Shown here piece by piece: positions 7,943-53,683 of a stretch of DNA of 53,703 nt. The notes below the pieces were generated by a model. It worked only from the letters and a program-made list of their open reading frames with translations, had not been told where the DNA came from and did not search any database. The first letter of the stretch is position 1. Each line of letters begins with the position of its first letter. The translations under genes were made by a program, and so were the position numbers. Source of the DNA: Candidatus Magasanikbacteria bacterium RIFOXYC2_FULL_42_28 (GTDB taxonomy: Bacteria; Patescibacteriota; Patescibacteriia; Magasanikbacterales; GWA2-37-8). The stretch is taken from assembly GCA_001784435.1 (NCBI GenBank), contig MFQZ01000004.1, forward strand, positions 1 to 53,703, in the 5' to 3' direction.

Positions 7943-10933
7943 ATGTCCAACATTCGCTGGTTTAAAGAACTCACAATCAAGGACGTTCCGCTCGTGGGTG
8001 GCAAAAACGCTTCCTTGGGCGAGATGTATCAAAAATTAAAGAAAAAGGGCGTGCCTGTTCCTAATGGTTTTGCGTTGACGGCTTCGGCCTATCGCGAATT
8101 TTTGACACATAATAAATTAGATAAAAGAATTAAACAGGCATTAAAAGGATTGGATGTAAAAAATGTGCGGGCGTTGTCGGCGGCGGGTAAACGGGTGCGG
8201 ACAATGATTTTGAGTGGTGAGTTTCCGTTAGAAATGAAAAAGGAGATTGGCGGTGCATATAAAAAATTGAGTGCCGACTCCCACCGCCCCCTCGCCCCCT
8301 CCTCGGGCAGGAGGGGGAATGCGACCGATGTGGCGGTGCGCTCGTCGGCGACCGCCGAGGACTTACCTGATGCTTCTTTCGCCGGCCAACAAGAAACATA
8401 TTTGAATGTGGTAGGTGAAAAAGCGCTTTTGGACGCGGTGCGAAAATGTTTAGCATCGTTATTTACCGATCGCGCGATTTCGTATCGTGAAGCCAAAGGT
8501 TTTGATCATTTTGCGGTGGCGCTTTCGGTTGGTGTGCAAAAAATGGTGCGTTCGGATTTGGGCTCGTCGGGCGTAATGTTTACCCTTGATACTGAAAGTG
8601 GTTTTAACGGCGTGGTTTTAATTAACGCGGCCTATGGTTTGGGCGAATATATTGTTAAGGGCCGGGTAACACCGGATCAATTTTTTGTTTTCAAAGATGG
8701 CGTGAAGCGTGGGTTTAAATCAATTGTCAGTCGCCGGCTGGGCACGAAAGACGCGCGTTTGGTTTATGGTAAAGGTGGCGGTACAAAATCAGAAAATGTA
8801 AAAATGTCTGATCAAAAGAAATTTTGTATTACCGAAGAGCAAGTGATTACGCTGGCCAAGTGGGGTGTAAAAATTGAAGAACATTATGGACACGCGATGG
8901 ATATTGAGTGGGCGTTGGACGGTCAAACGAACGAATTATTTATCGTGCAAGCGCGTTCGGAAACCGTGAAGGGTCGTTCAGACAAAACTGTCATTGAAAC
9001 CTATCGTTTAAAAAGTAAAAGTAAAATTTTAGCAACCGGAATTAGTGTTGGCCAAAAAATTGGGCAAGGGCGCGTGCGGATTATCAATTCCCCCAAACAA
9101 ATGAAACAGTTTAAGGCGGGCGAAGTGTTGGTAACGCGAATCACCGATCCTGATTGGGAACCAATTATGCGGGTGGCATCAGCGATTATTACCGAACAAG
9201 GTGGTAAAACTTCGCACGCGGCGATTGTCTCACGCGAATTAGGCGTGCCATGTATCGTGGGCGCAGTCAAAGTGCGACAACTTTTAAAACAAGGTCAAGA
9301 AGTGACGGCCTCGTGCGCGGATGGCGAAATCGGTTATATTTATCAAGGCCATTTGCCGTTTGAAGTGGAAAAAACCGAATTGAAAAATTTACCGGAAACA
9401 AAAACAAAAATAATGATGAATGTCGGCAATCCGGATTCGGCTTTTTCTTTGGCCAATATTCCGTGCGATGGCGTTGGTCTCGCGCGCGAAGAATTTATTT
9501 TCACCAATTTTATAAAAATTCATCCGCTGGCTTTAATAAATTTTGATAAATTAACTGATCACGCGGTAAAAACAAAAATTAACGAATTAACATTGGGTTA
9601 CACTGATAAAAAACAATTTTGTATTGATAAATTAGCCGAGGGTATCGCGTTTATCGCGACCGCCTTTTATCCGCATGATGTAATTGTGAGGTTGTCTGAT
9701 TTCAAAACTAATGAATACGCGACTTTAATCGGCGGAAAAGATTTTGAACCAAAAGAAGAAAATCCCATGATTGGTTGGCGGGGAGCGTCGCGCTATTATG
9801 ATCCCAAATACAAGCCCGGGTTTGCGTTGGAATGCGCGGCATTTAAAAAAGCGCGCGAACAGTGGGGCTTAAAAAATATTATTGTGATGGTGCCGTTTTG
9901 TCGCACGGTAGAAGAAGGTAAAAAAGTGTTGGCGGTGATGAAAGAATATGGTTTGGAGCGCGGCAAAGACGGCTTACAAGTATATGTAATGTGCGAAATC
10001 CCATCCAATGTAATTTTGGCCAAAGAATTTTCCGAAATTTTTGATGGGTTTTCGATTGGGTCCAATGATTTAACGCAATTGACTTTGGGAGTTGACCGTG
10101 ATTCGCAGTTAGTCGCGCATGTTTATGATGAAAATAATTTAGCGGTGAAGACATTGATTCGCCAAGTGATTGAAGTGGCGCATAAATATAAACGCAAAGT
10201 AGGTATTTGCGGACAAGCGCCCAGCGATTATCCGGAGTTCGCGCAATTTTTAGTGGCTGAAGGGATTGATAGTATTTCGTTAAATCCTGATACGGTAGTA
10301 AAAACAAAAATTAAAATTAGCGAAGAAGAAAAAAAGTTGGGTATTAACTTGTCATCCCGACTAAGTCGGGATCTCTCTAAAAATATCGCCACCAAAGCGT
10401 TGTCGGTATTAGGTGTAATTGGCTTGGCTTTGATGTTAACCGGTTATACTTGCGAGGCGGTGAATTATAATAAAAAGGCGGAAGAAATTAAAACGAGCGT
10501 GAACGCTCAACTCGCGGAATTTAAAAATGAATATCAGGCCGAATTGAAAAAAATTCAGGAGCGACCCCAGCATTATCAAGAAACCGGCCTTGCGCAATTT
10601 TATTTGAGTTACCCAAATGGGTGGATGATAAAACACAGTGAAAATAGAGTGGAGTTTTTTAGTCCTGATGGCCCCGGTGATTTTATAATTTTTTCAGGAG
10701 AAAATCGGTACGATCCAATGTTGGGAGAAAAAATTGCCACTGGCACCTGGTTTGGGTATGATTTTAAACGATTTAAACCGGTTATTCTCGCGGTTTCTTT
10801 ACAGACAAACAGTTATGAAGTAATGGAATTATACGAAACCGTTAACAAAAAATCAGTGAAAGTAATGGAATTTTTTGGTGATAGTGAAAATTTTGATAAT
10901 ATTTTAAACACGATTAAAGATTTTAAAATTTAA
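7943..10933 (+). CDS. ppsA: Phosphoenolpyruvate synthase with about 200-aa C-terminal extension (TM helix plus putative extracytoplasmic domain)
   Basis: VGGKNASLGEM, VAVRSSATAEDLPDASFAGQQET, GGKTSHAAIVSRELG (phospho-His), EENPMIGWRGASRY, GFSIGSNDLTQL, GICGQAPSD. Confidence 0.97.
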   Translation: MSNIRWFKELTIKDVPLVGGKNASLGEMYQKLKKKGVPVPNGFALTASAYREFLTHNKLDKRIKQALKGLDVKNVRALSAAGKRVRTMILSGEFPLEMKKEIGGAYKKLSADSHRPLAPSSGRRGNATDVAVRSSATAEDLPDASFAGQQETYLNVVGEKALLDAVRKCLASLFTDRAISYREAKGFDHFAVALSVGVQKMVRSDLGSSGVMFTLDTESGFNGVVLINAAYGLGEYIVKGRVTPDQFFVFKDGVKRGFKSIVSRRLGTKDARLVYGKGGGTKSENVKMSDQKKFCITEEQVITLAKWGVKIEEHYGHAMDIEWALDGQTNELFIVQARSETVKGRSDKTVIETYRLKSKSKILATGISVGQKIGQGRVRIINSPKQMKQFKAGEVLVTRITDPDWEPIMRVASAIITEQGGKTSHAAIVSRELGVPCIVGAVKVRQLLKQGQEVTASCADGEIGYIYQGHLPFEVEKTELKNLPETKTKIMMNVGNPDSAFSLANIPCDGVGLAREEFIFTNFIKIHPLALINFDKLTDHAVKTKINELTLGYTDKKQFCIDKLAEGIAFIATAFYPHDVIVRLSDFKTNEYATLIGGKDFEPKEENPMIGWRGASRYYDPKYKPGFALECAAFKKAREQWGLKNIIVMVPFCRTVEEGKKVLAVMKEYGLERGKDGLQVYVMCEIPSNVILAKEFSEIFDGFSIGSNDLTQLTLGVDRDSQLVAHVYDENNLAVKTLIRQVIEVAHKYKRKVGICGQAPSDYPEFAQFLVAEGIDSISLNPDTVVKTKIKISEEEKKLGINLSSRLSRDLSKNIATKALSVLGVIGLALMLTGYTCEAVNYNKKAEEIKTSVNAQLAEFKNEYQAELKKIQERPQHYQETGLAQFYLSYPNGWMIKHSENRVEFFSPDGPGDFIIFSGENRYDPMLGEKIATGTWFGYDFKRFKPVILAVSLQTNSYEVMELYETVNKKSVKVMEFFGDSENFDNILNTIKDFKI

Positions 10934-14419: not shown

Positions 14420-14449
14420 AATATATAGATTATACATTTAAAATAAAAA

Positions 14450-14468
14450 ATCCCGACTTAGTCGGGAT
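14450..14468 (-). terminator. Leader terminator-like hairpin ATCCCGAC-TAA-GTCGGGAT plus T-tract upstream of the HelD-like gene
   Basis: Perfect 8-bp stem followed by ttttt on the minus strand. Confidence 0.65.
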
Positions 14469-14520
14469 CTGGGCGATTATAATTTTTGAGTTTACTAAAT
14501 TGTTGTATGTAGTAAGTCAT
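14458..14520 (-). CDS. Putative 20-aa leader peptide MTYYIQQFSKLKNYNRPDPD
   Basis: ATG just after the predicted TSS. The stop codon TAA forms the loop of the leader hairpin. Confidence 0.4.
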   Translation of the reverse strand: MTYYIQQFSKLKNYNRPDPD

Positions 14521-14532
14521 ACTTGTGTGAAT

Positions 14533-14561
14533 AGTATAAACTGAAATTTGGCATTTGTCAA
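14533..14561 (-). promoter_or_regulatory. Sigma70 promoter TTGACA-N17-TATACT
   Basis: Consensus hexamers with 17-nt spacer, pointing to the HelD-like gene. Confidence 0.75.
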
Positions 14562-14584
14562 GTGTTATAAATTGGCTGGTCGGA

Positions 14585-14665
14585 TGCCGACTCAGTCGGC
14601 ACAACTTTCTCCCGATTCAATACGGGATGCAAGCACCGACTCAGTCGGAATGCTCTAAATAGTTG
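14585..14665 (-). pseudogene. Degenerate tRNA-Asp relic containing CCGAC-TCA-GTCGG hairpins
   Basis: caacttt and tgctctaa..agttg segments match the tRNA-Asp variable-loop and D-arm context, with palindromes in between. Confidence 0.5.
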
Positions 14666-14689
14666 TTTTATAAAAAATAAGCCACTAAG

Positions 14690-14763
14690 CGGGTCGGACG
14701 GGACTCGAACCCGCAACTTCTGCCGTGACAGGGCAGTGCTCTAACCAGTTGAACTACCGACCC
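14690..14763 (-). tRNA. tRNA-Asp (GUC)
   Basis: GGGTCGG/CCGACCC acceptor stem, D-arm, anticodon arm ctgcc-ctGTCac-ggcag, T-loop GTTCGAG. CCA not encoded. Confidence 0.97.
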
Positions 14764-14773
14764 GCTTAATGGC

Positions 14774-15034
14774 TTACGCACCATGCTGTTCAAAGTACCA
14801 CTTTATGTATTTTGTATTTTTTGTTCGTTTTAGTCTGCTTTCAAGTTTAGTCGCCTCAGAATTTGTTTGAGAAATTATGGTTCCAATCAAAGTCCACGGC
14901 GATCCTGTTTTAGTATACTTTTCTTCTCCGTTATTATGTTCTTTAAATCGTCTTGTTATGTTATTGGTTTTCCCGATGTAGTATTTATTTCTTGATTGGC
15001 TGTGCAGTAAGTAGGTATAAAATATTTCCTCCAT
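14774..15034 (-). CDS. Stand-alone GIY-YIG endonuclease, 86 aa
   Basis: YTYLL...YYIGKT...RRFKEHN...EATKLE GIY-YIG motif set. Confidence 0.92.
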   Translation of the reverse strand: MEEIFYTYLLHSQSRNKYYIGKTNNITRRFKEHNNGEEKYTKTGSPWTLIGTIISQTNSEATKLESRLKRTKNTKYIKWYFEQHGA

Positions 15035-15050
15035 ATATTTTAATTACCCA

Positions 15051-15104
15051 GCAACTTTCCCGACTTAGTCGGGATGCTCTAACCAGTTGAACTACCGACC
15101 CGCT
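15051..15104 (-). pseudogene. 5' two-thirds tRNA-Asp copy with the anticodon arm replaced by a 17-nt palindrome
   Basis: 30 nt (15075..15104) identical to 14737..14766. The 17-nt tcccgactaagtcggga replaces the 17-nt anticodon arm. aagttgc variable loop retained. No T-arm. Confidence 0.85.
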
Positions 15105-15154
15105 AATTATTCTAAATTGTTTTATATTAATTACTACAAATTTTTAACAAGTTA

Positions 15155-15183
15155 ATTATAGTATATTTTTTGATTTTCGTCAA
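15155..15183 (-). promoter_or_regulatory. Sigma70 promoter TTGACG-N17-TATAAT for the tRNA relic / GIY-YIG / tRNA-Asp unit
   Basis: Consensus hexamers, 17-nt spacer. Confidence 0.8.
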
Positions 15184-15196
15184 GACCAACCTAAAA

Positions 15197-15289
15197 TAAA
15201 AAAACCCGGTAAGCGTCCGAACGAGCGAGAGTCAAAGGAGGGGGATGACTCCACTACGTTCGAACACTTACCAGGTCTTTAATAACTAT
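15197..15289 (-). ncRNA. Candidate ~90-nt small RNA: long hairpin with an anti-SD loop (UCCCCCUCCUU) ending in a U-tract
   Basis: Directly downstream of a perfect promoter. cctggtaagtgttcgaacg...cgttcggacgcttaccggg stem followed by tttttt. No ORF. Confidence 0.6.
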
Positions 15290-15295
15290 TAAATA

Positions 15296-15324
15296 ATTAT
15301 ACCGCACCGCCACAACCCTGTCAA
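15296..15324 (-). promoter_or_regulatory. Perfect sigma70 promoter TTGACA-N17-TATAAT
   Basis: Exact consensus on the minus strand. Confidence 0.85.
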
Positions 15325-15370: not shown

Positions 15371-15439
15371 CCTGAACCGATGTTATCACATCTGGTTTAG
15401 GACGTAGCCCTGAACCGATGCCGTAGCATCTGGTTTAGG
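15371..15439. repeat. Two tandem copies of a 31-bp hairpin cctgaaccgatg-N6-catctggtttagg, overlapping the rplT stop
   Basis: Copies at 15371..15401 and 15409..15439 differ only in the loop. Confidence 0.85.
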
Positions 15440-15782
15440 GTTTGACTACCGCTAAAATTTGTTTGAATAAGGCCGGGTAATTTTGCGCGATTTGCGACAA
15501 TACCTTGCGGTCCAGCGCGATGCCTTTTTTCTTGAGCGCGTCCATTAATTTGCTGTAAGAAATTCCTTCTTTGCGAGCGGCGGCATTAATTTTTATTTGC
15601 CATAATCCGCGCGCGGTGCGTTTTTTGACTTTACGGTCGTTGAAAGCGTATTGGCCGGCTTTGGAGCGGGCGGTTTTGGCTACTTTAATCTTGGACTTGC
15701 GGCCCCACATGTAGCCCTTGGTATGTTTTAAAATTCCGCGTCGGCGTTTGGCATGCAATACGCCACCTTTAATTCTGGTCAT
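15435..15782 (-). CDS. rplT: 50S ribosomal protein L20
   Basis: MTRIKGG..KGYMWG..RGLWQIKINAAAR..SYSKLM..LDRKVLSQIA. Confidence 0.98.
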   Translation of the reverse strand: MTRIKGGVLHAKRRRGILKHTKGYMWGRKSKIKVAKTARSKAGQYAFNDRKVKKRTARGLWQIKINAAARKEGISYSKLMDALKKKGIALDRKVLSQIAQNYPALFKQILAVVKP

Positions 15783-27939: not shown

Positions 27940-28578
27940 ATGACTCGTGCACAGTTCTGGTCGTTTTTGGTGGCGGTGGTGGTCGTGGGCATCGTGGCAG
28001 TGCTGGGGTTCGGTCTCGGCTTCACCAAGGCCGACGAGGACGAGGTGGTCGCCGCCCTGGCGACCAAGGCGGAGGCCACCCGCATGGCGGCCGAGTTCGT
28101 CGCCGTGCGGGGAGAGTTCGCCGCGGGTGACGCCACTCTCGCTGCTCGCCTCACCGGCGTGGAGGGGCGGGTCTCCACCGTGGAGTCCCGCCTCACCGGC
28201 GTGGAGGGTGGCCTGAAGGCGGCCACTCGGCGGCTCTCCGAGCTGCCGCAGAAGGCCGATCTCGACGCCCTCGCCGCCCGTCTCGGTTCGGCCGAGGGTA
28301 CGCTCGCCTCGGCCCCCTGGTCGACTGGCCTGGCCACCTTGGCCGGTCGGGTCGCGACCCTCGAGACGCCCGCGCCCCCGATCGTCGCCCCCGTGTCGCC
28401 CACCTGCACTGGCTGGTCCCTCGGCGTCCGCGGCGCGCCCATCTCCCCGGTGGGTTGCTACGCGACCTGCGTTGCGGCGAAAGCTGTGGCGCAGGGTGGT
28501 AGCCGGTTCAGCGGCTCGGTCTACGGGCGGACATCCGCCCAGTGGATTGAGTCGAGCGAATCCTGCCCGGCCGAGTAG
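27940..28578 (+). CDS. Cassette 2: GC-rich paralog of cassette 1 with a Cys-containing C-terminal domain, 212 aa
   Basis: GGAGG SD. N-terminal TM. EFxxVRxEFAAxDAxLxxRLxGVEGGLK shared with cassette 1. Internal 42-bp duplication. Confidence 0.85.
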
Positions 28579-28587
28579 TTCTTTCAC

Positions 28588-28798
28588 ACCCCACCGCACG
28601 ATCTCCCGATCGTAGCGGTTGGCGGCACACAGCGCGTCTTTCCTGTAAGCGCTGGATCGGTCAGACGGTTTGTCTCCCCGTGAGACGAGTCGGCTTCCGT
28701 TGGAAAGGGTCCCGAGTTTGTTGGCAACAACACTCTCGGGCACTCTGGCATGTTGATTTGTTAATCAAGTCAACAGTTAGAGTAGGTGTTCTTTACAA
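28588..28798 (+). ncRNA. Cassette 2 structured 3' element (173 bp shared with cassette 3)
   Basis: 28588..28760 matches 29602..29774 with 2 mismatches, then gtcaacagttaga and tgttctttacaa. Confidence 0.7.
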
Positions 28799-28933
28799 AA
28801 AATTAAATTTTCCGGCGTGAACTTTTCATTGTTTAGAAAAATAATGAAGAGCTCACGCCGGATCCGATCGAGGCATATTGTGGACGATCCACAATGTTGC
28901 TTTAGTTGGGATTATCTGGTAGAGGAGGTTCCT

Positions 28934-29596
28934 ATGGGGCGCAAACCCCCGACCTCGGCGCGCGTCATCGCGACGTTCGCCATCCTCTGCGCCACGGCCT
29001 CCCCGGCCGCGGCGCAATCTGAAACCGGTGACGCGGCGCCCGCCGCTGTCACCCCTGATCCGGCCGAGTTGCCGGTGCCCCCAACCTCACCCGACCCGGG
29101 TGGCTGGAAGTTGGTGCTCGCCCCCGAGTTCAGCGTCGGGGTGGCGCACTCGGAGGCCGGCTTCGACGCCGACTCCGAGGATGCCTACCTCGGCACCGTC
29201 TCGGCCACCTTGCTCCTGCGCCACTCGGCCCTGTCCGGTGGTGAGCCCTCATCTTTCCTGTATGGGCTTCGCGGCTTGTACGGGTTGGGTGGTGGCTCGT
29301 CGGGTGCACGCCAGTTGTGGGGCGTCGCTGGCCTTCTGGGTTGGCGCGCGTCTCGCGACCGCGTCGTCGGGGGCATTGGTCTGTCCTACATCCAGTATGA
29401 CAAGGCAGGCGGGGATTGGGTCCGCCGCGGTGGCGGCGTTCCGCTCTGGATCGAGATCAAATTGGGGGATAGCACCTCCAATTGGTTCCTCGGTCTGGAA
29501 GGGACGCCCGCCATCCTCTGGCGGGACCTGGACGATGCCCCTGCGTTCGCCTTCGGGCTGAACGCGGGGGTGCTCTACCACATCCCCCTCTACTAG
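28934..29596 (+). CDS. Cassette 3: GC-rich secreted protein resembling a small outer-membrane beta-barrel, 220 aa
   Basis: AGGAGG at 28923..28928. Signal peptide (ASPAAA-Q), Pro-rich linker, Gly/aromatic-rich amphipathic strands, C-terminal GLNAGVLYHIPLY. Confidence 0.75.
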   Translation: MGRKPPTSARVIATFAILCATASPAAAQSETGDAAPAAVTPDPAELPVPPTSPDPGGWKLVLAPEFSVGVAHSEAGFDADSEDAYLGTVSATLLLRHSALSGGEPSSFLYGLRGLYGLGGGSSGARQLWGVAGLLGWRASRDRVVGGIGLSYIQYDKAGGDWVRRGGGVPLWIEIKLGDSTSNWFLGLEGTPAILWRDLDDAPAFAFGLNAGVLYHIPLY

Positions 29597-29601
29597 TCTT
29601 T

Positions 29602-29817
29602 ACCCCACCGCACGATCTCCCGATCGTAGCGGTTGGCGGCACACAGCGCGCCTTTCCTGTAAGCGCTGGATCGGTCAGACGGTTTGTCTCCCCGTGAGAC
29701 GAGTCGGCTTCCGATGGAAAGGGTCCCGAGTTTGTTGGCAACAACACTCTCGGGCACTCTGGCATGTTGATTTGACATACGAAGCATCGAGTCAACAGTT
29801 AGATTGGTTCTTTAAAA
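29602..29817 (+). ncRNA. Cassette 3 structured 3' element (near-identical to cassette 2 element)
   Basis: 173-bp direct repeat, different loop in the final hairpin, ggttctttaaaa at 29806..29817. Confidence 0.7.
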
Positions 29818-29979
29818 TTTAGAAAAATAAATTAAAATATAAATGATACTGCGCGCGACTGGCGCGGAAAGAGAAATTATTATTTGATTTTTCTTTCTGC
29901 GTCAGTTTGTAGTTCGGTGCTCCGAGGATGGTCCTCGTAGGTGCCGGCGCAGCAAATCGCATAGCAAGGAGAAAAAACT

Positions 29980-31530
29980 ATGCGTACCACCAACATCGCG
30001 GTGGTTCTCTGTCTCGGACTCTGGACCGCTTCGTGCGGCACCAAGGCCGAGGCCCCCGGGCTCGACGTGCCCGCGGACGACGATAACACGGCGGATGACG
30101 ACACCGCCGACAACGACGACCTCGTCGTTTGCCTCGAGTGCAACGACGATGACCCGTGCACCACGGACTGGTGCCGGGTGTCACCCCCCCCTGGGGTCGA
30201 CTCGTGTGTCCACATGAACGGGGACGCCGGCGTCACCTGCGACGACGGCAACGGTTGCACCGAGACCGACGTGTGCGACGGGGTGGGCACCTGCGTTGGC
30301 ACGCCCCTGGCGTGCGACGACGGCGATGCCTGCACCGACGACGCGTGCACCGACGGCGTGTGCAACAACACGTCCGTCACCTGCGACGACGGCGATGCGT
30401 GTACCGCGGAGTTCTGCGGGACCATCGCCGGCGGTACCGGTGGGTGCTTCTCGGTTCCCGTGGCTGGCGAAGGCTGCGAGGAGGAGTCCAACTGTACCGT
30501 CGCCAGCGATGGCGTCGGGAATTTCTCCCTGACCTGCCCGGACGGCTCCGTGGCAGAGTGGGGTGACGGCGCGGATGGCGCGCCGGGAATGGACGGAGCC
30601 GATGGGGTCGATGGGACCCCGGGTACCGACGGCGTCGATGGCAGCGACGGCACGGACGGAACCGATGGCGCGCCGGGAGCTGACGGGCTCGACGGTGCGG
30701 ACGGGGCGGATGGCGCCCCGGGTGATTCGTGCAGCGTGACTGTGCTTCCGATGGGGTGCATGGTCATTGTGTGCGGGGATGACGATCCTTCCCCGCCCCT
30801 GTGCCCGGACGTGTCCGAGGCCGGATGCACCACCACGCAGGACGGCGACTGTGCTGTCATCAACTGTGTGGGTGGATCTACGTCGCGGGTGTGCCCCACC
30901 ACGACGGCTCCTGCCTGTGTCACCGACGGCGACTGCGCCGACGGCAATGCCTGCAACGGCCACGAATCGTGTGTGGCCGGGGAGTGTGTGAATGGGGTCG
31001 TGGTGTCGTGTCTGGCCGCGGACGCGTGCCATCTCGTCGGTGAGTGTGATCCGGCGAATGGCCTGTGCTCCTCGCCTTCCGCCCCGACGGGGACGGTGTG
31101 CGACGACGGCAACGCCGGCACCACCGGCGACCAGTGCGACGGCGCTGGCCTGTGTGTGGGGGTGGCCACGCCCCCCAGCCCCGATGCCGATGGCGACGGG
31201 TACAGCATCGCGGCCGGCGATTGCGACGATGACCCCACCGTGGGTCCGTCGCCGGCCCGATGGTGCCGGGGGAGCGACACGAAGAAGTTCCTCGTGATCG
31301 ACTTCCTCGGAAGTGTGGCCCCGGCCTGCCCAGCCGGAAGTGTCGAAGTCGCGCTGACCGACGGGTCCGCGCTCAACAACCCCGGTATCCACGATACCAC
31401 CGGGGATGGCTTCGACAACAACTGCAACGGCATCATCGACGAGGGCGGCGGGGACCAGTGCACCTGGTCGCACATGTCGTCCGGTCCCGCGCTGGACTAT
31501 CTCGTTCGATGCCCGTGGATGAACCCGTAG
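29980..31530 (+). CDS. Cassette 4: GC-rich Cys-rich lipoprotein with CDDGxACT repeats, collagen-like Gly-X-Y tract and metal-binding-type motif, 516 aa
   Basis: AAGGAG SD, lipobox WTASC, repeated CDDGNxCT, GADGAPGMDG... tract, DADGDGY..GDCDD and DGFDNNCNGIIDEG. Confidence 0.88.
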   Translation: MRTTNIAVVLCLGLWTASCGTKAEAPGLDVPADDDNTADDDTADNDDLVVCLECNDDDPCTTDWCRVSPPPGVDSCVHMNGDAGVTCDDGNGCTETDVCDGVGTCVGTPLACDDGDACTDDACTDGVCNNTSVTCDDGDACTAEFCGTIAGGTGGCFSVPVAGEGCEEESNCTVASDGVGNFSLTCPDGSVAEWGDGADGAPGMDGADGVDGTPGTDGVDGSDGTDGTDGAPGADGLDGADGADGAPGDSCSVTVLPMGCMVIVCGDDDPSPPLCPDVSEAGCTTTQDGDCAVINCVGGSTSRVCPTTTAPACVTDGDCADGNACNGHESCVAGECVNGVVVSCLAADACHLVGECDPANGLCSSPSAPTGTVCDDGNAGTTGDQCDGAGLCVGVATPPSPDADGDGYSIAAGDCDDDPTVGPSPARWCRGSDTKKFLVIDFLGSVAPACPAGSVEVALTDGSALNNPGIHDTTGDGFDNNCNGIIDEGGGDQCTWSHMSSGPALDYLVRCPWMNP

Positions 31531-31790
31531 CGGGTATCCAACGCAGTGAGCTGGTGAACATAACACCGGCAATATAGCAAAAAAATGTCGGGAGATACCG
31601 TAATTCTCCTAGTCCGCCCAGTAAAGGAGGGGTGGAAATGAAACGGAACACAATGCGTCCGTGGCGCGCAAGCGTCTGGATGTTTGACAGCAGGCGTCGG
31701 TGGGGAGGTCTCATACTTCCCTGCCGACGCCCGCCCGATTGAGAACATAAAGATTTGTGTTTTCAAACAGGGTGAAGCGATTTAAAGTTT
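31531..31790 (+). ncRNA. Cassette 4 structured 3' element
   Basis: Short hairpins, long stem 31693..31731, last hairpin 31739..31766, purine linker, degenerate gcgatttaaa. Confidence 0.5.
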
Positions 31791-31962
31791 GAAGATATAG
31801 TTTTACATATTAACGTCTCGGTTCGAAAATGCAAAAACTTCGTTTTTTCATTTTGCTCACCTTCGAGACGCTAATAAAAATACCACCAAGTTCGTCTCTC
31901 TCATCCTATGTTTTTTTAGACAAAGGAAGAAGAACTCGGTGGTATTTTTGTTTTATTTATAC

Positions 31963-32316
31963 CTATGCGACCTGCAATTGTTTTACTTGTCTTTCTAAAA
32001 AGTCCACTCGTTTGCGTAACTCCAGAATATCTTTGGCCGCGGCATCTTCATCGCCAATAATGCGTTGTTCCAATTGATCCAACTGGCGATTAATTAATTT
32101 TAACTCAGAGTGAATATACGCAAGCGCGCTGGCCATTTCAGATTTAAATTCCGACAGTTCGCCTTTGACTGACTTTATTTCCGCGCTTAGTTCTCCTTTC
32201 AATTCATCAAACCGCCTGTCCACGCTTTTAGCGAATAATTCCATTGCCTCTAAAATTTCGTTATTACTCACCTCTTTTTTGGCTGTCATATTGTTTGACA
32301 TTAATTTTTTAAGCAA
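31963..32316 (-). CDS. Small coiled-coil hypothetical protein (start uncertain, 32316/32301/32289)
   Basis: Heptad-repeat character. AT-rich, genome-like codon usage. Confidence 0.75.
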   Translation of the reverse strand: MLKKLMSNNMTAKKEVSNNEILEAMELFAKSVDRRFDELKGELSAEIKSVKGELSEFKSEMASALAYIHSELKLINRQLDQLEQRIIGDEDAAAKDILELRKRVDFLERQVKQLQVA

Positions 32317-51724: not shown

Positions 51725-51799
51725 GGCCTCATCGTCTAACGGCTAGGACAGAGCCTTCTCAAGGCTTAAATCGGGGTTCGATTCCCCGTGGGGCTACCA
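51725..51799 (+). tRNA. tRNA-Glu (CUC)
   Basis: ggcctca/tggggct acceptor stem, anticodon arm gagcc-ttCTCaa-ggctt, T-arm cgggg-ttcgatt-ccccg, CCA encoded. Confidence 0.95.
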
Positions 51800-53321
51800 C
51801 GTTAAAACAATTCGGGTTTTTGACAAAATTTTCACGGGCAACGCACAGCGTCGCCCAAGGGTTTTTCGGCGAATTGTCGCCGTTTTTATATTCCCCCCAC
51901 ACCAGTTTACCGCCCGCGAGGCGGAGGTTCGAGCCAAAGATTTCTTTGGCAACAACCTTTTTGGCAAAAAGGTTGTTCTCCCGCGCGATTTGAGGCAGAT
52001 TTTCTGTCTCTTTTATCCATTGTCGCATCGGTTCGAGCCAACTATTTCGTTTCTGTTCGGCGGTCAATATTTTCTCCTCCAGCGACTTTTTCTCGCTCAT
52101 AAATTTCGCCTTCTTTTCCAGATATATTTCGCGCTCTATATCTTGCTCTAAATAACTATCTAACAGTCGCTGTAATTTGGTTTTAATATTTTCTATCGCA
52201 CTTTTGTTCTCTTGAACAAAAGCAACTGACGACTGCGCATCGCTATTTTTGTCTTTTTCTAAAATCGCTGTTAATTGTGTCGCCCAATCCGCGCTCAAAG
52301 AAAATTTTTGTAATAATAAGGATGTCTGCTCGTCTAAACTTTCTTGGCGAATACAGGGTTCGTCACATTTTATTGTTTTATTTTTCTTTGTGCAATGGTA
52401 ATAAATATAGTCATGAGTATTACCATTTTTCTGACGTTTAACCCTGTATTCGCCAGTTATTCCCATTCCGCACGTTCCACATTTCAACATTCCACAAAAC
52501 GCTTGCGCCTTGTTTTTAGTTTTGTGATGCGGTCGTCCTTTTTGTTTTAAAATATTTTGAACTATATCAAAAATCTTCTTTGAAATAATTGGCTCATGTT
52601 TTCCTTCGTATAATTCTTTGTTGTATTTAAAAAATCCGACATAAAACGGATTGGAAAGCGTAAACGAAACTTTATCTCGTTTCCAATTTTTTTCGTTCTT
52701 TGTTTTAATACCTTGCTCTGCCAAAAAGTTAGATACATCTTCCAGTCGTGAATTGCCCTGCGCATAAAATTCAAAAGTTTTGCGTAAAATCTCAGCTCTT
52801 CTTTTATCCACCGCCACATTTTTTGTGCGTGGGTCGTTGAAATATTCAAAGGGCGCAAGGCCGGGATATTCTCCACGTCTAACTTTCTGATGCATTCCGC
52901 GCTTGACGTTTTCGCTTAAACTATCAACATAATATTTGCTTTGTCCAAAAGCAATATTAAGCATAAATTTTCCTTGCGGGGTTGGCTCAAACCAAAATTG
53001 CGGAAATTTTAACGCTAAAATATTTCCGCAATCCAAAAGATAAATTATTTTTCCGCCGTCAACAGAATTGCGTGCCAAACGATCTGGGTGCCAACTGATT
53101 ATACCGTTTGCTTCTCCGCGTTCTATTCTTTCCAGCATTGAATTAAAAATCGGTCTGCCCGGGATTTTAGCTGACTGCTTTTCTATTAACTCCTCAATAA
53201 TATCAAATTTTTCGTTTCTCGCGAACGCGCGCAACTCGGTAATTTGCGCCTCAATACTTAAAACTTGTTTATCTTCCACATCCGTGGATTTACGGGCATA
53301 CAAAAAGAATTTTTGTGCCAT
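51759..53321 (-). CDS. Large serine recombinase (resolvase domain, recombinase domain, Zn ribbon, coiled coil); C-terminus reads antisense into tRNA-Glu
   Basis: FFLYARKST (catalytic Ser), WHPDRLARN, NPFYVG, HEPII, CGTCG..YYHC. Confidence 0.95.
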   Translation of the reverse strand: MAQKFFLYARKSTDVEDKQVLSIEAQITELRAFARNEKFDIIEELIEKQSAKIPGRPIFNSMLERIERGEANGIISWHPDRLARNSVDGGKIIYLLDCGNILALKFPQFWFEPTPQGKFMLNIAFGQSKYYVDSLSENVKRGMHQKVRRGEYPGLAPFEYFNDPRTKNVAVDKRRAEILRKTFEFYAQGNSRLEDVSNFLAEQGIKTKNEKNWKRDKVSFTLSNPFYVGFFKYNKELYEGKHEPIISKKIFDIVQNILKQKGRPHHKTKNKAQAFCGMLKCGTCGMGITGEYRVKRQKNGNTHDYIYYHCTKKNKTIKCDEPCIRQESLDEQTSLLLQKFSLSADWATQLTAILEKDKNSDAQSSVAFVQENKSAIENIKTKLQRLLDSYLEQDIEREIYLEKKAKFMSEKKSLEEKILTAEQKRNSWLEPMRQWIKETENLPQIARENNLFAKKVVAKEIFGSNLRLAGGKLVWGEYKNGDNSPKNPWATLCVARENFVKNPNCFNVVAPRGIEPRFKP

Positions 53322-53683
53322 ATATTTGAAATTCAAAATGCCGTCCTGGTGCACCCAACCCAAAGAACTTAAAAAGTCAAAGGATTGTCCAAGACGGCAA
53401 TTAAAAAAGTCCTTTGGTTAAGTTGGGTGCGAGGTTATTATATCACAAATCTCAAAAACAATACATCGGTTTGGATAAAACAAATTTTGTTTCAAAATTT
53501 GAAAATCGCGCGGGAGCCGAACCTCCACCTCGCGAGCGGTAAATTGGTGTGGCCTGCCTTCGCTAATGCTTCGGCGAGTCAACGGGGGGAATTAAAAAAC
53601 GGCGACGGTTGGCCAAAAAACCCATGGGCGATGCTGTGCGTCGCCCGTGAAAATTTTGTCCAAAACCCGAATTGTTTTAACGT
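51799..53683. mobile_element. Serine-recombinase element at the tRNA-Glu 3' end, bracketed by imperfect inverted repeats
   Basis: 51799..51931 is the diverged reverse complement of 53518..53683, which carries a 31-bp palindromic insert at 53553..53583. Confidence 0.6.
53340..53429 (-). promoter_or_regulatory. Structured 5' leader of the recombinase gene with crossing stems
   Basis: 53340..53349 pairs with 53389..53398, and 53351..53359 pairs with 53421..53429. TATAAT just upstream on the minus strand. Confidence 0.55.

Follow-up and report, generated by a model that had tools for sequence, protein, structure and literature searches.

On the minus strand of the 53,703-nt stretch of DNA analysed here (contig MFQZ01000004.1 of Candidatus Magasanikbacteria bacterium RIFOXYC2_FULL_42_28, positions 1 to 53,703; hereafter the window), a small GIY-YIG nuclease gene lies between a broken and an intact copy of a tRNA-Asp gene, and a short hairpin takes the place of tRNA arms in the broken copies. 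Read in the direction of transcription, the region begins with rplT (15782..15435) and a separate small hairpin RNA unit (15324..15190) that has a promoter and a terminator of its own, followed by a sigma-70-like promoter (TTGACG-17-TATAAT, 15183..15155, 11 of 12 matches) that stands 5′ of a tRNA-Asp 5′ relic (15103..15046), the nuclease open reading frame (ORF) of 86 amino acids (aa; 15034..14774) and the intact tRNA-Asp(GTC) (14763..14689; found by ARAGORN, Rfam score 66.8 bits), the last starting 10 nt past the nuclease stop codon. A 3′ relic of the same tRNA comes next (14658..14574), and the locus is closed by a terminator-like solo hairpin, AGATCCCGAC-TAA-GTCGGGATTT, followed by a T-run (14470..14448). 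Another solo hairpin, ATCCCGAC-TAA-GTCGGGAT, lies on the plus strand (10354..10372) within an ORF (7943..10933) for a phosphoenolpyruvate (PEP)-utilising enzyme. A preliminary description of the locus had listed the promoter, 5′ copy, ORF, tRNA-Asp, 3′ relic and solo hairpins, and this anatomy proved correct in every detail. In relatives, designated here by L numbers, an equivalent promoter stands 5′ of the relic (L150, L008) or, in two nuclease-free loci, 5′ of the intact tRNA (L155, L157); the nuclease gene lies within the tRNA-Asp transcription unit and is probably transcribed together with the tRNA from the latter's promoter. Downstream of the 3′ relic, a promoter-like site (TTGACA-17-TATACT, 14561..14533, minus strand) leads to the hairpin terminator ~65 nt on, directly before a 612-aa ORF, and could give a short transcript or serve as an attenuator.

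What remains in the 5′ relic is the 5′ strand of the acceptor stem, the D arm, the variable loop and the first part of the T stem, with the hairpin between D arm and variable loop. The relic shares 30 identical nt with the intact tRNA-Asp, namely an upstream AGC and tRNA positions 1-27, after which the 17-nt anticodon arm CTGCCCTGTCACGGCAG is swapped for the 17-nt TCCCGACTAAGTCGGGA, the hairpin TCCCGAC-TAA-GTCGGGA (15074..15058), whose single-stranded DNA fold has an energy of −7.1 kcal/mol (z = −4.8). Beyond the hairpin AAGTTGC is retained, and the relic breaks off in the T-loop at ..TGGGT|AATT. The 3′ relic (RNA fold −35.5 kcal/mol, z = −4.1) reads TTAGAGCA, TTCCGAC-TGA-GTCGGTG, TCCCG-loop-CGGGA, AAAGTTGT, GCCGAC-TGA-GTCGGC and ATCCGACCAGCC, in which the 3′ half of the D arm, a variable-loop remnant (AAAGTTGT) and a degenerate acceptor 3′ strand (ATCCGACCAGCC) can be recognised. 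Its first hairpin is at the anticodon-arm position (14650..14634), the second, (A)TCCCG-TATTGAAT-CGGGA(G), lies between that position and the variable loop (14628..14609), and the third is at the T-arm position (14600..14586), all on the minus strand. This layout recurs in L001 and L009, both of which keep the extra second hairpin. In the whole window CCGACTNAGTCGG occurs five times, versus 0.00 times in 100 shuffles; the fifth copy lies in frame in a poorly conserved, variable linker of the PEP-utilising-enzyme ORF, and in L150 and L144 the gene for this enzyme directly adjoins the nuclease, relic and hairpin cassette.

The ORF matched the Pfam family PF01541 (E = 2.4e-15), with the GIY-YIG catalytic domain making up the whole protein. 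Among 52 sequences Y8, Y19, G21 and E65 never vary, and conservation reaches at least 90% at R29 and H33. AlphaFold2 predicted the fold with a mean pLDDT of 93.5, placing strands at residues 5-12, 17-23 and 47-55 and helices at 26-34 and 58-71, so that the motifs, the arginine, the metal-binding glutamate and the β-β-α-β-α core typical of the GIY-YIG superfamily are all present. A family profile compared with the PDB matched 1ywl (1.5e-7), 1zg2 (1e-6), SLX1 (1.9e-4) and UvrC (3.7e-3), and a Foldseek search with the model returned Slx1 at a TM-score normalised to the query of 0.65-0.73 (probability 1.0), with UvrC at 0.53 and I-TevI at 0.45 or less. Because both the profile matches and the superposition of the predicted model are best for Slx1 and UPF0213 proteins and weaker for UvrC and I-TevI, the protein is assigned to the stand-alone Slx1-like branch, as a minimal domain with no extensions, at an identity of only ~25% to the solved UPF0213 members. 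It carries no NUMOD or helix-turn-helix DNA-binding modules of the Seg type, the 86 aa being the catalytic domain alone. The family is large, with 6,031 clusters at 50% identity matching the profile (E ≤ 1e-10), most of their members 80-130 aa long, and a 2006 survey of GIY-YIG proteins left the stand-alone Slx1-like branch without a function (PMC1564403). A tblastn search of the nuclease against 50,697 phage records found no relative at E ≤ 1e-5.

We gathered 23 further distinct loci by protein similarity alone, and in 21 of them the ORF has a tRNA or transfer-messenger RNA (tmRNA) gene as a same-strand neighbour at a distance of 1 to ~170 nt. By our estimate, tRNA genes and their near flanks take up ~1-2% of such genomes, so this proximity is far above chance; the proposed link of the nuclease to tRNA genes and tRNA relics turned out to be general among homologous loci. 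The partner is tRNA-Asp in seven Magasanikbacteria-type loci, tRNA-Val (three times) or tRNA-Phe in Chitinophagaceae, tRNA-Pro in two Ignavibacteria loci, tRNA-Gln and tRNA-Met in Saccharibacteria and Parcubacteria, tRNA-Ala and tRNA-Asn in Bacteroidota-like contigs, tmRNA in one Patescibacteria contig and, in Runella zeae (L151), a CAT tRNA containing a group I intron. The nearest named genome is RIFOXYD2_FULL_41_14, whose nuclease is 89% identical, and in several loci the nuclease stop codon is the TAG of the tRNA D arm. At L151 (2343-3041) the anticodon loop of the tRNA(CAT) is split by a group I intron (RF00028, 79 bits) that contains a 139-aa ORF, and two 5′-exon relics with the hairpin, together with the GIY-YIG ORF, stand in tandem just 5′ of this intron-split tRNA; here the GIY-YIG stop is the TAG at tRNA positions 8-10, and the intron lies apart from the GIY-YIG cassettes. 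Just upstream of infC, L155 (1259-2075) and L147 (45-317) carry a second and more distant small GIY-YIG gene. In L155 it directly follows the tmRNA gene, so tmRNA, which has a tRNA-like end, seems to serve as a residence site as well.

To quantify the hairpin, matches to TCCCGA-N1-9-TCGGGA were counted in 26 distinct loci, comprising the 23 protein-selected loci, the window, L042 and L103. The 35 kb lying within 500 nt of the ORFs contained 24 matches, versus two in the remaining 81 kb and 0.01 in all in shuffled sequence; of the two far matches, one is a relic pushed away by an inserted gene and the other is a solo copy. Among the protein-selected loci, 12 of 23 carry the motif within 500 nt of the ORF, including loci of Patescibacteria, Chitinophagaceae (L013), Bacteroidales (L168), the Cytophagales member Runella zeae (L151) and Ignavibacteria (L014, L165). 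As a negative control, 131 kb of viral DNA was used, comprising 43 loci of distant GIY-YIG genes from a protein-based scan of viral contigs (mostly giant-virus bins); it contained neither the hairpin nor a tRNA gene. The trio of nuclease, hairpin and tRNA gene therefore recurs in Patescibacteria, Bacteroidota and Ignavibacteria, which bears out the suggested partnership of nuclease and hairpin.

Broken copies of seven tRNA types (Asp, Lys, Pro, Asn, Ala, Val and Met) contain the hairpin, which follows the nuclease gene independently of any single tRNA. Replacement of the anticodon arm by the hairpin with exact boundaries, first described for the window, was found again in the homologue survey, in relics of tRNA-Asp (eight Magasanikbacteria-type loci), tRNA-Lys (L042), tRNA-Pro (the 5′ relic of L165) and a high-GC tRNA (L103, with the hairpin variant GGCCGAC-CGG-GTCGGGCC). 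L042 is arranged as tRNA-Lys, ORF and a tRNA-Lys 3′ relic in which the anticodon arm has become the identical TCCCGACTAAGTCGGGA. Although the preliminary description had centred on the anticodon arm, the hairpin also occupies the D-loop (L147), the 3′ side of the D-stem (L151), the 5′ half of the anticodon stem (L168), the T-loop (L160, L013) and, in the window, the T-arm position. Reading the hairpin as an inside-out acceptor stem or T arm was considered and rejected, as it fits only L014, where the hairpin 3′ arm overlaps the 5′ end of tRNA-Pro.

In most lineages the lower six base pairs of the hairpin are constant, with covariation (C-G, G-C, A-T) among the upper ones, and the two conserved halves lie 4 to 7 nt apart. 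Given this covariation at the top of the stem and the variable spacing, a folded hairpin fits better than a double-stranded site of fixed spacing. Genomes with just ~50% identity in their ribosomal proteins still share the hairpin. Hairpins flank the nuclease gene in the window (15074..15058 and 14650..14586), L150 (1973 and 2375) and L151 (1959 and 2265), a layout matching the proposed resemblance to a transposase gene flanked by repetitive extragenic palindromic (REP) sequences. The accompanying idea of a REP-like dispersed family did not hold, because outside the locus ~52 kb of the window contains a single copy. A scan of metagenome DNA with the pattern WAGAGCANNCCGACNNNGTCGGNNNNNG was too loose, with nearly all of its 120 matches falling in high-GC coding sequence, and the relevant ones were only L042, L103 and three L009-type copies. 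L143, the sole hairpin match on a viral contig, as well as L027 and L134 from the metagenome scan, have neither nuclease nor tRNA and were treated as chance matches.

Relatives without the nuclease gene beside tRNA-Asp allow a direct comparison of alleles, as the preliminary description had proposed. In L155 and L157, whose RplT is 73-74% identical, rplT is followed by the small-RNA hairpin, the promoter, a tRNA-Asp of the same sequence and a terminator, with no nuclease beside the tRNA-Asp and no relic or hairpin in 6 kb. Hairpin-bearing relics are present in all eight loci with a nuclease adjoining tRNA-Asp, so the relic and hairpin are gained or lost along with the nuclease gene. L154 is the closest locus by RplT and was tried as a pre-insertion comparison, but its synteny stops after the small-RNA hairpin and it offers no clean junction.

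Copy number varies as well. In otherwise identical contexts L159 has one cassette and L160 two, and L169 one and L168 two, so that these pairs, together with L155 and L157, display among close relatives the presence/absence polymorphism expected of homing endonucleases. In L003 a 99-nt relic unit is present in three tandem copies; in L150 and L011 the ORF and intact tRNA are enclosed by perfect 40-46-nt direct repeats reaching from D-loop to T-loop, hairpin included; and L012 and L016 end in truncated second ORF copies. Even among genomes with differing acceptor stems (GGGTCGG, GGACCGG, GGATCGG), the relic flanks are an exact match to the local tRNA, which means that gene conversion is ongoing or that the relics are repeatedly regenerated. 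The relic ends cluster in the T-loop (positions 53-58), after GGGT, GGTT, GGGTTCG or GAGTTCGA, and the junctions otherwise lie in the D-loop at GTT|CAA, where hairpins are inserted; none is in the anticodon arm, contrary to the earlier proposal that this arm is targeted.

Several variants were noted at individual loci. L011 (~2690-2745) has a frameshift at ten consecutive A residues of the nuclease ORF, possibly through assembly error, decay or slippage. L001 (2760-2870) has an extra pseudo-tRNA-Asp 5′ of the usual relic, with three other palindromes in its anticodon stem and T-loop (CCCGCC-TA-GGCGGG, CCATATC-ATGC-GATATGG and CGCCCTGTT-GAAT-AACAGGGCG). Metagenome runs X1 and X2, from source-like samples, yielded contigs with a variant 3′ relic bearing a GTCGGGA hairpin arm (window 14634-14680) and a contig missing 146 nt of the 3′ half of the nuclease gene (window 14767-14912), which hints at strain-level variation at the locus; this line was dropped, as short contigs running through a widely shared tRNA are not interpretable.

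Taking these observations together, we lean, with modest confidence, towards the view that the locus holds a cassette of a nuclease and its cognate hairpin, resident at tRNA genes, with the relics as products of break repair. The cassette would consist of a minimal stand-alone Slx1/UPF0213-type GIY-YIG gene and the short hairpin TCCCGA(C)-loop-(G)TCGGGA, and would be expressed together with the tRNA. Nuclease-dependent breaks in the tRNA gene would be repaired by recombination or copying, leaving partial tRNA-Asp duplicates with junctions clustered at GTT^CRA of the T-loop and the D-loop. The hairpin lies in the dispensable tRNA copies, mostly exactly where the anticodon stem-loop would be. 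In its folded form the hairpin is probably the recognition element of the nuclease, which would bind or cut the hairpin or the tRNA loops.

The closest known analogue is phage SegB, a GIY-YIG homing endonuclease, which cuts within tRNA genes at RAWTSGAAC (GTTCSAWTY on the other strand), the T-loop box, and drives recombination-dependent tandem amplification of the tRNA and segB, with truncated segB copies (PMC13096335). Its gene lies in the T4/T6 tRNA cluster, and segB is found near tRNAs of many types across phages (PMC13096335; PMC2330249). Like SegB, the cassette presents a free-standing GIY-YIG gene among tRNA genes of many types in many genomes, and its break points, tandem arrays and truncated nuclease copies look the same. 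The two differ in that SegB is ~220 aa long with DNA-binding modules and belongs to the I-TevI/UvrC branch, whereas the cassette nuclease has 86 aa and is Slx1-like; SegB is phage-borne, whereas the cassette is located on a bacterial chromosome and vertically retained within its lineage; and neither a cognate hairpin nor a hairpin-for-arm swap has been reported for SegB.

Other known systems resemble parts of the cassette. The UPF0213 proteins 1ywl and 1zg2 share the minimal 80-100-aa domain with no auxiliary domain and are the best sequence and structure matches, but the 2006 survey describes neither a palindrome nor proximity to tRNA genes for this group, and mentions just one fusion to a TrmH-like tRNA methyltransferase (PMC1564403). 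RAYT/REP elements (REPtrons) likewise have a single nuclease gene flanked by short GC-rich hairpins that it presumably recognises, with occasional solo copies. RAYTs, however, are HUH/Y1 enzymes, whereas the only ORF of the cassette is GIY-YIG; REPs occur in hundreds per genome and as doublets, whereas the cassette hairpin occurs about once per 50 kb outside the locus; and RAYT/REP elements have no link to tRNA genes. Integrase islands also reside at tRNA genes, where incomplete tRNA copies form direct repeats and the junctions fall in the region of the T-loop or anticodon loop. The cassette differs in lacking an integrase, the ~600-bp unit of the window holding only the 86-aa ORF; in duplicating both 5′ and 3′ parts of the tRNA, with the upstream repeat being the 5′ part; in a unit length of 300-450 bp rather than kilobases; and in the hairpin inside the duplicated copy. 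A group I intron with its homing endonuclease would place a ribozyme core within the tRNA, and an Rfam search gave no intron match in the window and no family covering the relics, the hairpin or the spacer of the Saccharibacteria type described below. In the full-text literature searched and in the 2006 survey (PMC1564403), small GIY-YIG genes with tRNA relics or the TCCCGA hairpin are undescribed, though an earlier account elsewhere is possible. Free-standing GIY-YIG nuclease genes at tRNA genes are already known; what is new here is the cognate hairpin and the replacement of tRNA arms.

Several observations weigh against the favoured cassette. The nuclease has no separate DNA-binding domain, and specific reading of a sequence is not accounted for. 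The intact tRNA beside the nuclease keeps the same T-loop and D-loop and survives, and simple break repair does not account for the exact replacement of the anticodon arm. Neither a complete tRNA with the hairpin in place of its anticodon arm nor a clean before-and-after insertion junction occurs among the loci analysed. Two of the loci with an exact arm replacement, L042 and L103, were found through the hairpin pattern itself and were therefore excluded from the protein-selected counts. Within Magasanikbacteria, nuclease identities are 54-62% versus 48-74% for the neighbours InfC, RpmI and RplT, with one pair, possibly an exception to this tracking, at 89% versus 60-85%. Because the nuclease stays at one locus and diverges together with these neighbours, the comparison suggests long vertical retention under purifying selection without recurrent invasion in this lineage; the gene may be kept because it benefits the host, or its loss may simply be difficult. 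Lastly, a Saccharibacteria and Parcubacteria clade (L017-L021) lacks the TCCCGA hairpin and has another conserved, structured spacer containing G-U pairs, which hints at a function in RNA. This spacer, between tRNA and ORF, reads CGAACCACTCG ... GAGTGGTGAG ... GGGATGYACC-loop-GGTRCGTCCC, with G-U and compensatory pairs; it matches nothing in Rfam and may represent a 5′ leader RNA that has not been described. Since this clade has a different spacer, nuclease clade and hairpin type seem to change together.

A bolder version of the favoured cassette, rather unlikely in our judgement, would make it a new class of minimal mobile element, in which a structure-specific nuclease and its hairpin move by recognising tRNA-gene stem-loops and swap an arm for their own hairpin at exact boundaries. 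If true, this arm-for-hairpin swap would be an insertion or gene conversion mechanism unlike those of transposases, integrases and classical homing. In a variant, the tRNA-like module with its hairpin could be a nucleic-acid partner that steers the nuclease to tRNA genes. The preliminary description had envisaged a selfish element, but the Magasanikbacteria gene, fixed at its locus and diverging with its ribosomal neighbours, does not look like one that hops freely.

Alternatively, the elements might act in RNA, with the tRNA-like pieces and the hairpin as untranslated parts of the nuclease mRNA, serving as sites for RNase P, RNase Z or RNase III, as stabilising end hairpins, as a terminator or as an autoregulatory protein-binding site. 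The hairpin would then be the 'anticodon arm' of the tRNA-like module of the cassette, with gene conversion matching the other arms to the neighbouring tRNA, which would account for the exact arm boundaries and for relic flanks identical to the local tRNA. The ORF is always on the same strand as the tRNA, within the short distances given above, mostly without a promoter of its own, and the 5′ relic lies between promoter and start codon. The covariation in the stem, the terminator-like form of one hairpin copy and the G-U and compensatory pairs of the Saccharibacteria-type spacer also point towards RNA. However, each relic lacks one acceptor strand and therefore cannot fold as a tRNA, and the 5′ relic folds no better than shuffled sequence (z = −1.1). 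The hairpin also occurs 3′ of the tRNA, within a coding region and, in relics, inside D- and T-loops. Direct repeats, differences in tandem copy number and truncated copies of the ORF all arise at the level of DNA. Moreover, the stem sequence is conserved across phyla, which argues for recognition by a protein rather than for structure alone. On balance we regard an RNA role as unlikely. None of the RNA runs searched contained the window sequence, and the runs found for L012 share the tRNA only.

A still less likely explanation is co-option by the host, which would keep nuclease and hairpin to promote recombination at the tRNA locus, for example to change copy number or repair an essential tRNA gene present in one copy. 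It would fit the divergence of the gene in step with essential neighbours, the Magasanikbacteria-type ORFs examined, which are intact except for the L011 frameshift, and a position beside tRNA-Asp that is kept though the wider context differs (L150). There is precedent in SegB, whose amplification of tRNAs helps phages to escape tRNA-cleaving defences, and in eukaryotic Slx1, which maintains rDNA copy number (PMC1564403). Yet the close relatives L155 and L157 thrive without the nuclease, and in no locus is the intact tRNA amplified, the extra copies being only broken tRNAs and nuclease genes; the spread over many tRNAs in different phyla resembles insertion of an element.

That there is no functional link at all, only tRNA-Asp tandem duplications decaying beside an unrelated ORF and a palindrome that is a lineage-specific terminator, as the terminator-like copy and the solo copies in the window and L001 might suggest, is hardly credible given that one and the same hairpin accompanies one protein family across three phyla and seven types of tRNA (0.01 by chance), that it is absent from the 131 kb of control DNA and the nuclease-free relatives, and that it is conserved between genomes with ribosomal proteins ~50% identical.

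Some further features of the window were recorded. The unit at 15190-15324 on the minus strand, with a perfect sigma-70 promoter (TTGACA-17-TATAAT), a hairpin of ~85 nt and a T-run, looks like an independent small-RNA unit. Its hairpin folds at −51.6 kcal/mol (z = −10.7) with an apical loop, CCCCCUCCUUUG, that resembles an anti-Shine-Dalgarno sequence; no Rfam family matched at gathering score. The unit is kept just 5′ of tRNA-Asp in L001, L003, L147, L150, L154, L155 and L157, whether the nuclease is present or not. On the plus strand at ~51895-51935, ~100 nt past tRNA-Glu and inside an ORF on the minus strand (51759..53363), a palindrome CCGCC-CGCGA-GGCGG followed by a T-arm-like AGGTTCGAGCC resembles part of the L009 3′ relic, with no nuclease nearby. 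Positions 1-2098 form a perfect 1049-bp tandem duplication with a 332-aa ORF in each copy, which has internal 63-nt (21-aa) repeats. At ~28000-32000 the GC content rises to 62%, versus 38-49% elsewhere and 51% just before, and long ORFs overlap on both strands; this segment may be foreign DNA or an assembly join.

The stand-alone Slx1-like proteins form a very large family that has been left without a function, and the clade at tRNA genes, with its conserved hairpin, supplies a concrete candidate substrate. Genome annotations will systematically pick up pseudo-tRNA fragments, and small ORFs with tRNA sequence fused to them, from these relics. The exact swap of a tRNA arm for a foreign hairpin in several independent tRNAs poses a new puzzle. 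In Patescibacteria, with their tiny genomes, each tRNA gene is usually present in a single copy, and a nuclease and hairpin cassette at such genes would carry the SegB finding beyond phages, to the chromosomes of these and other bacteria.

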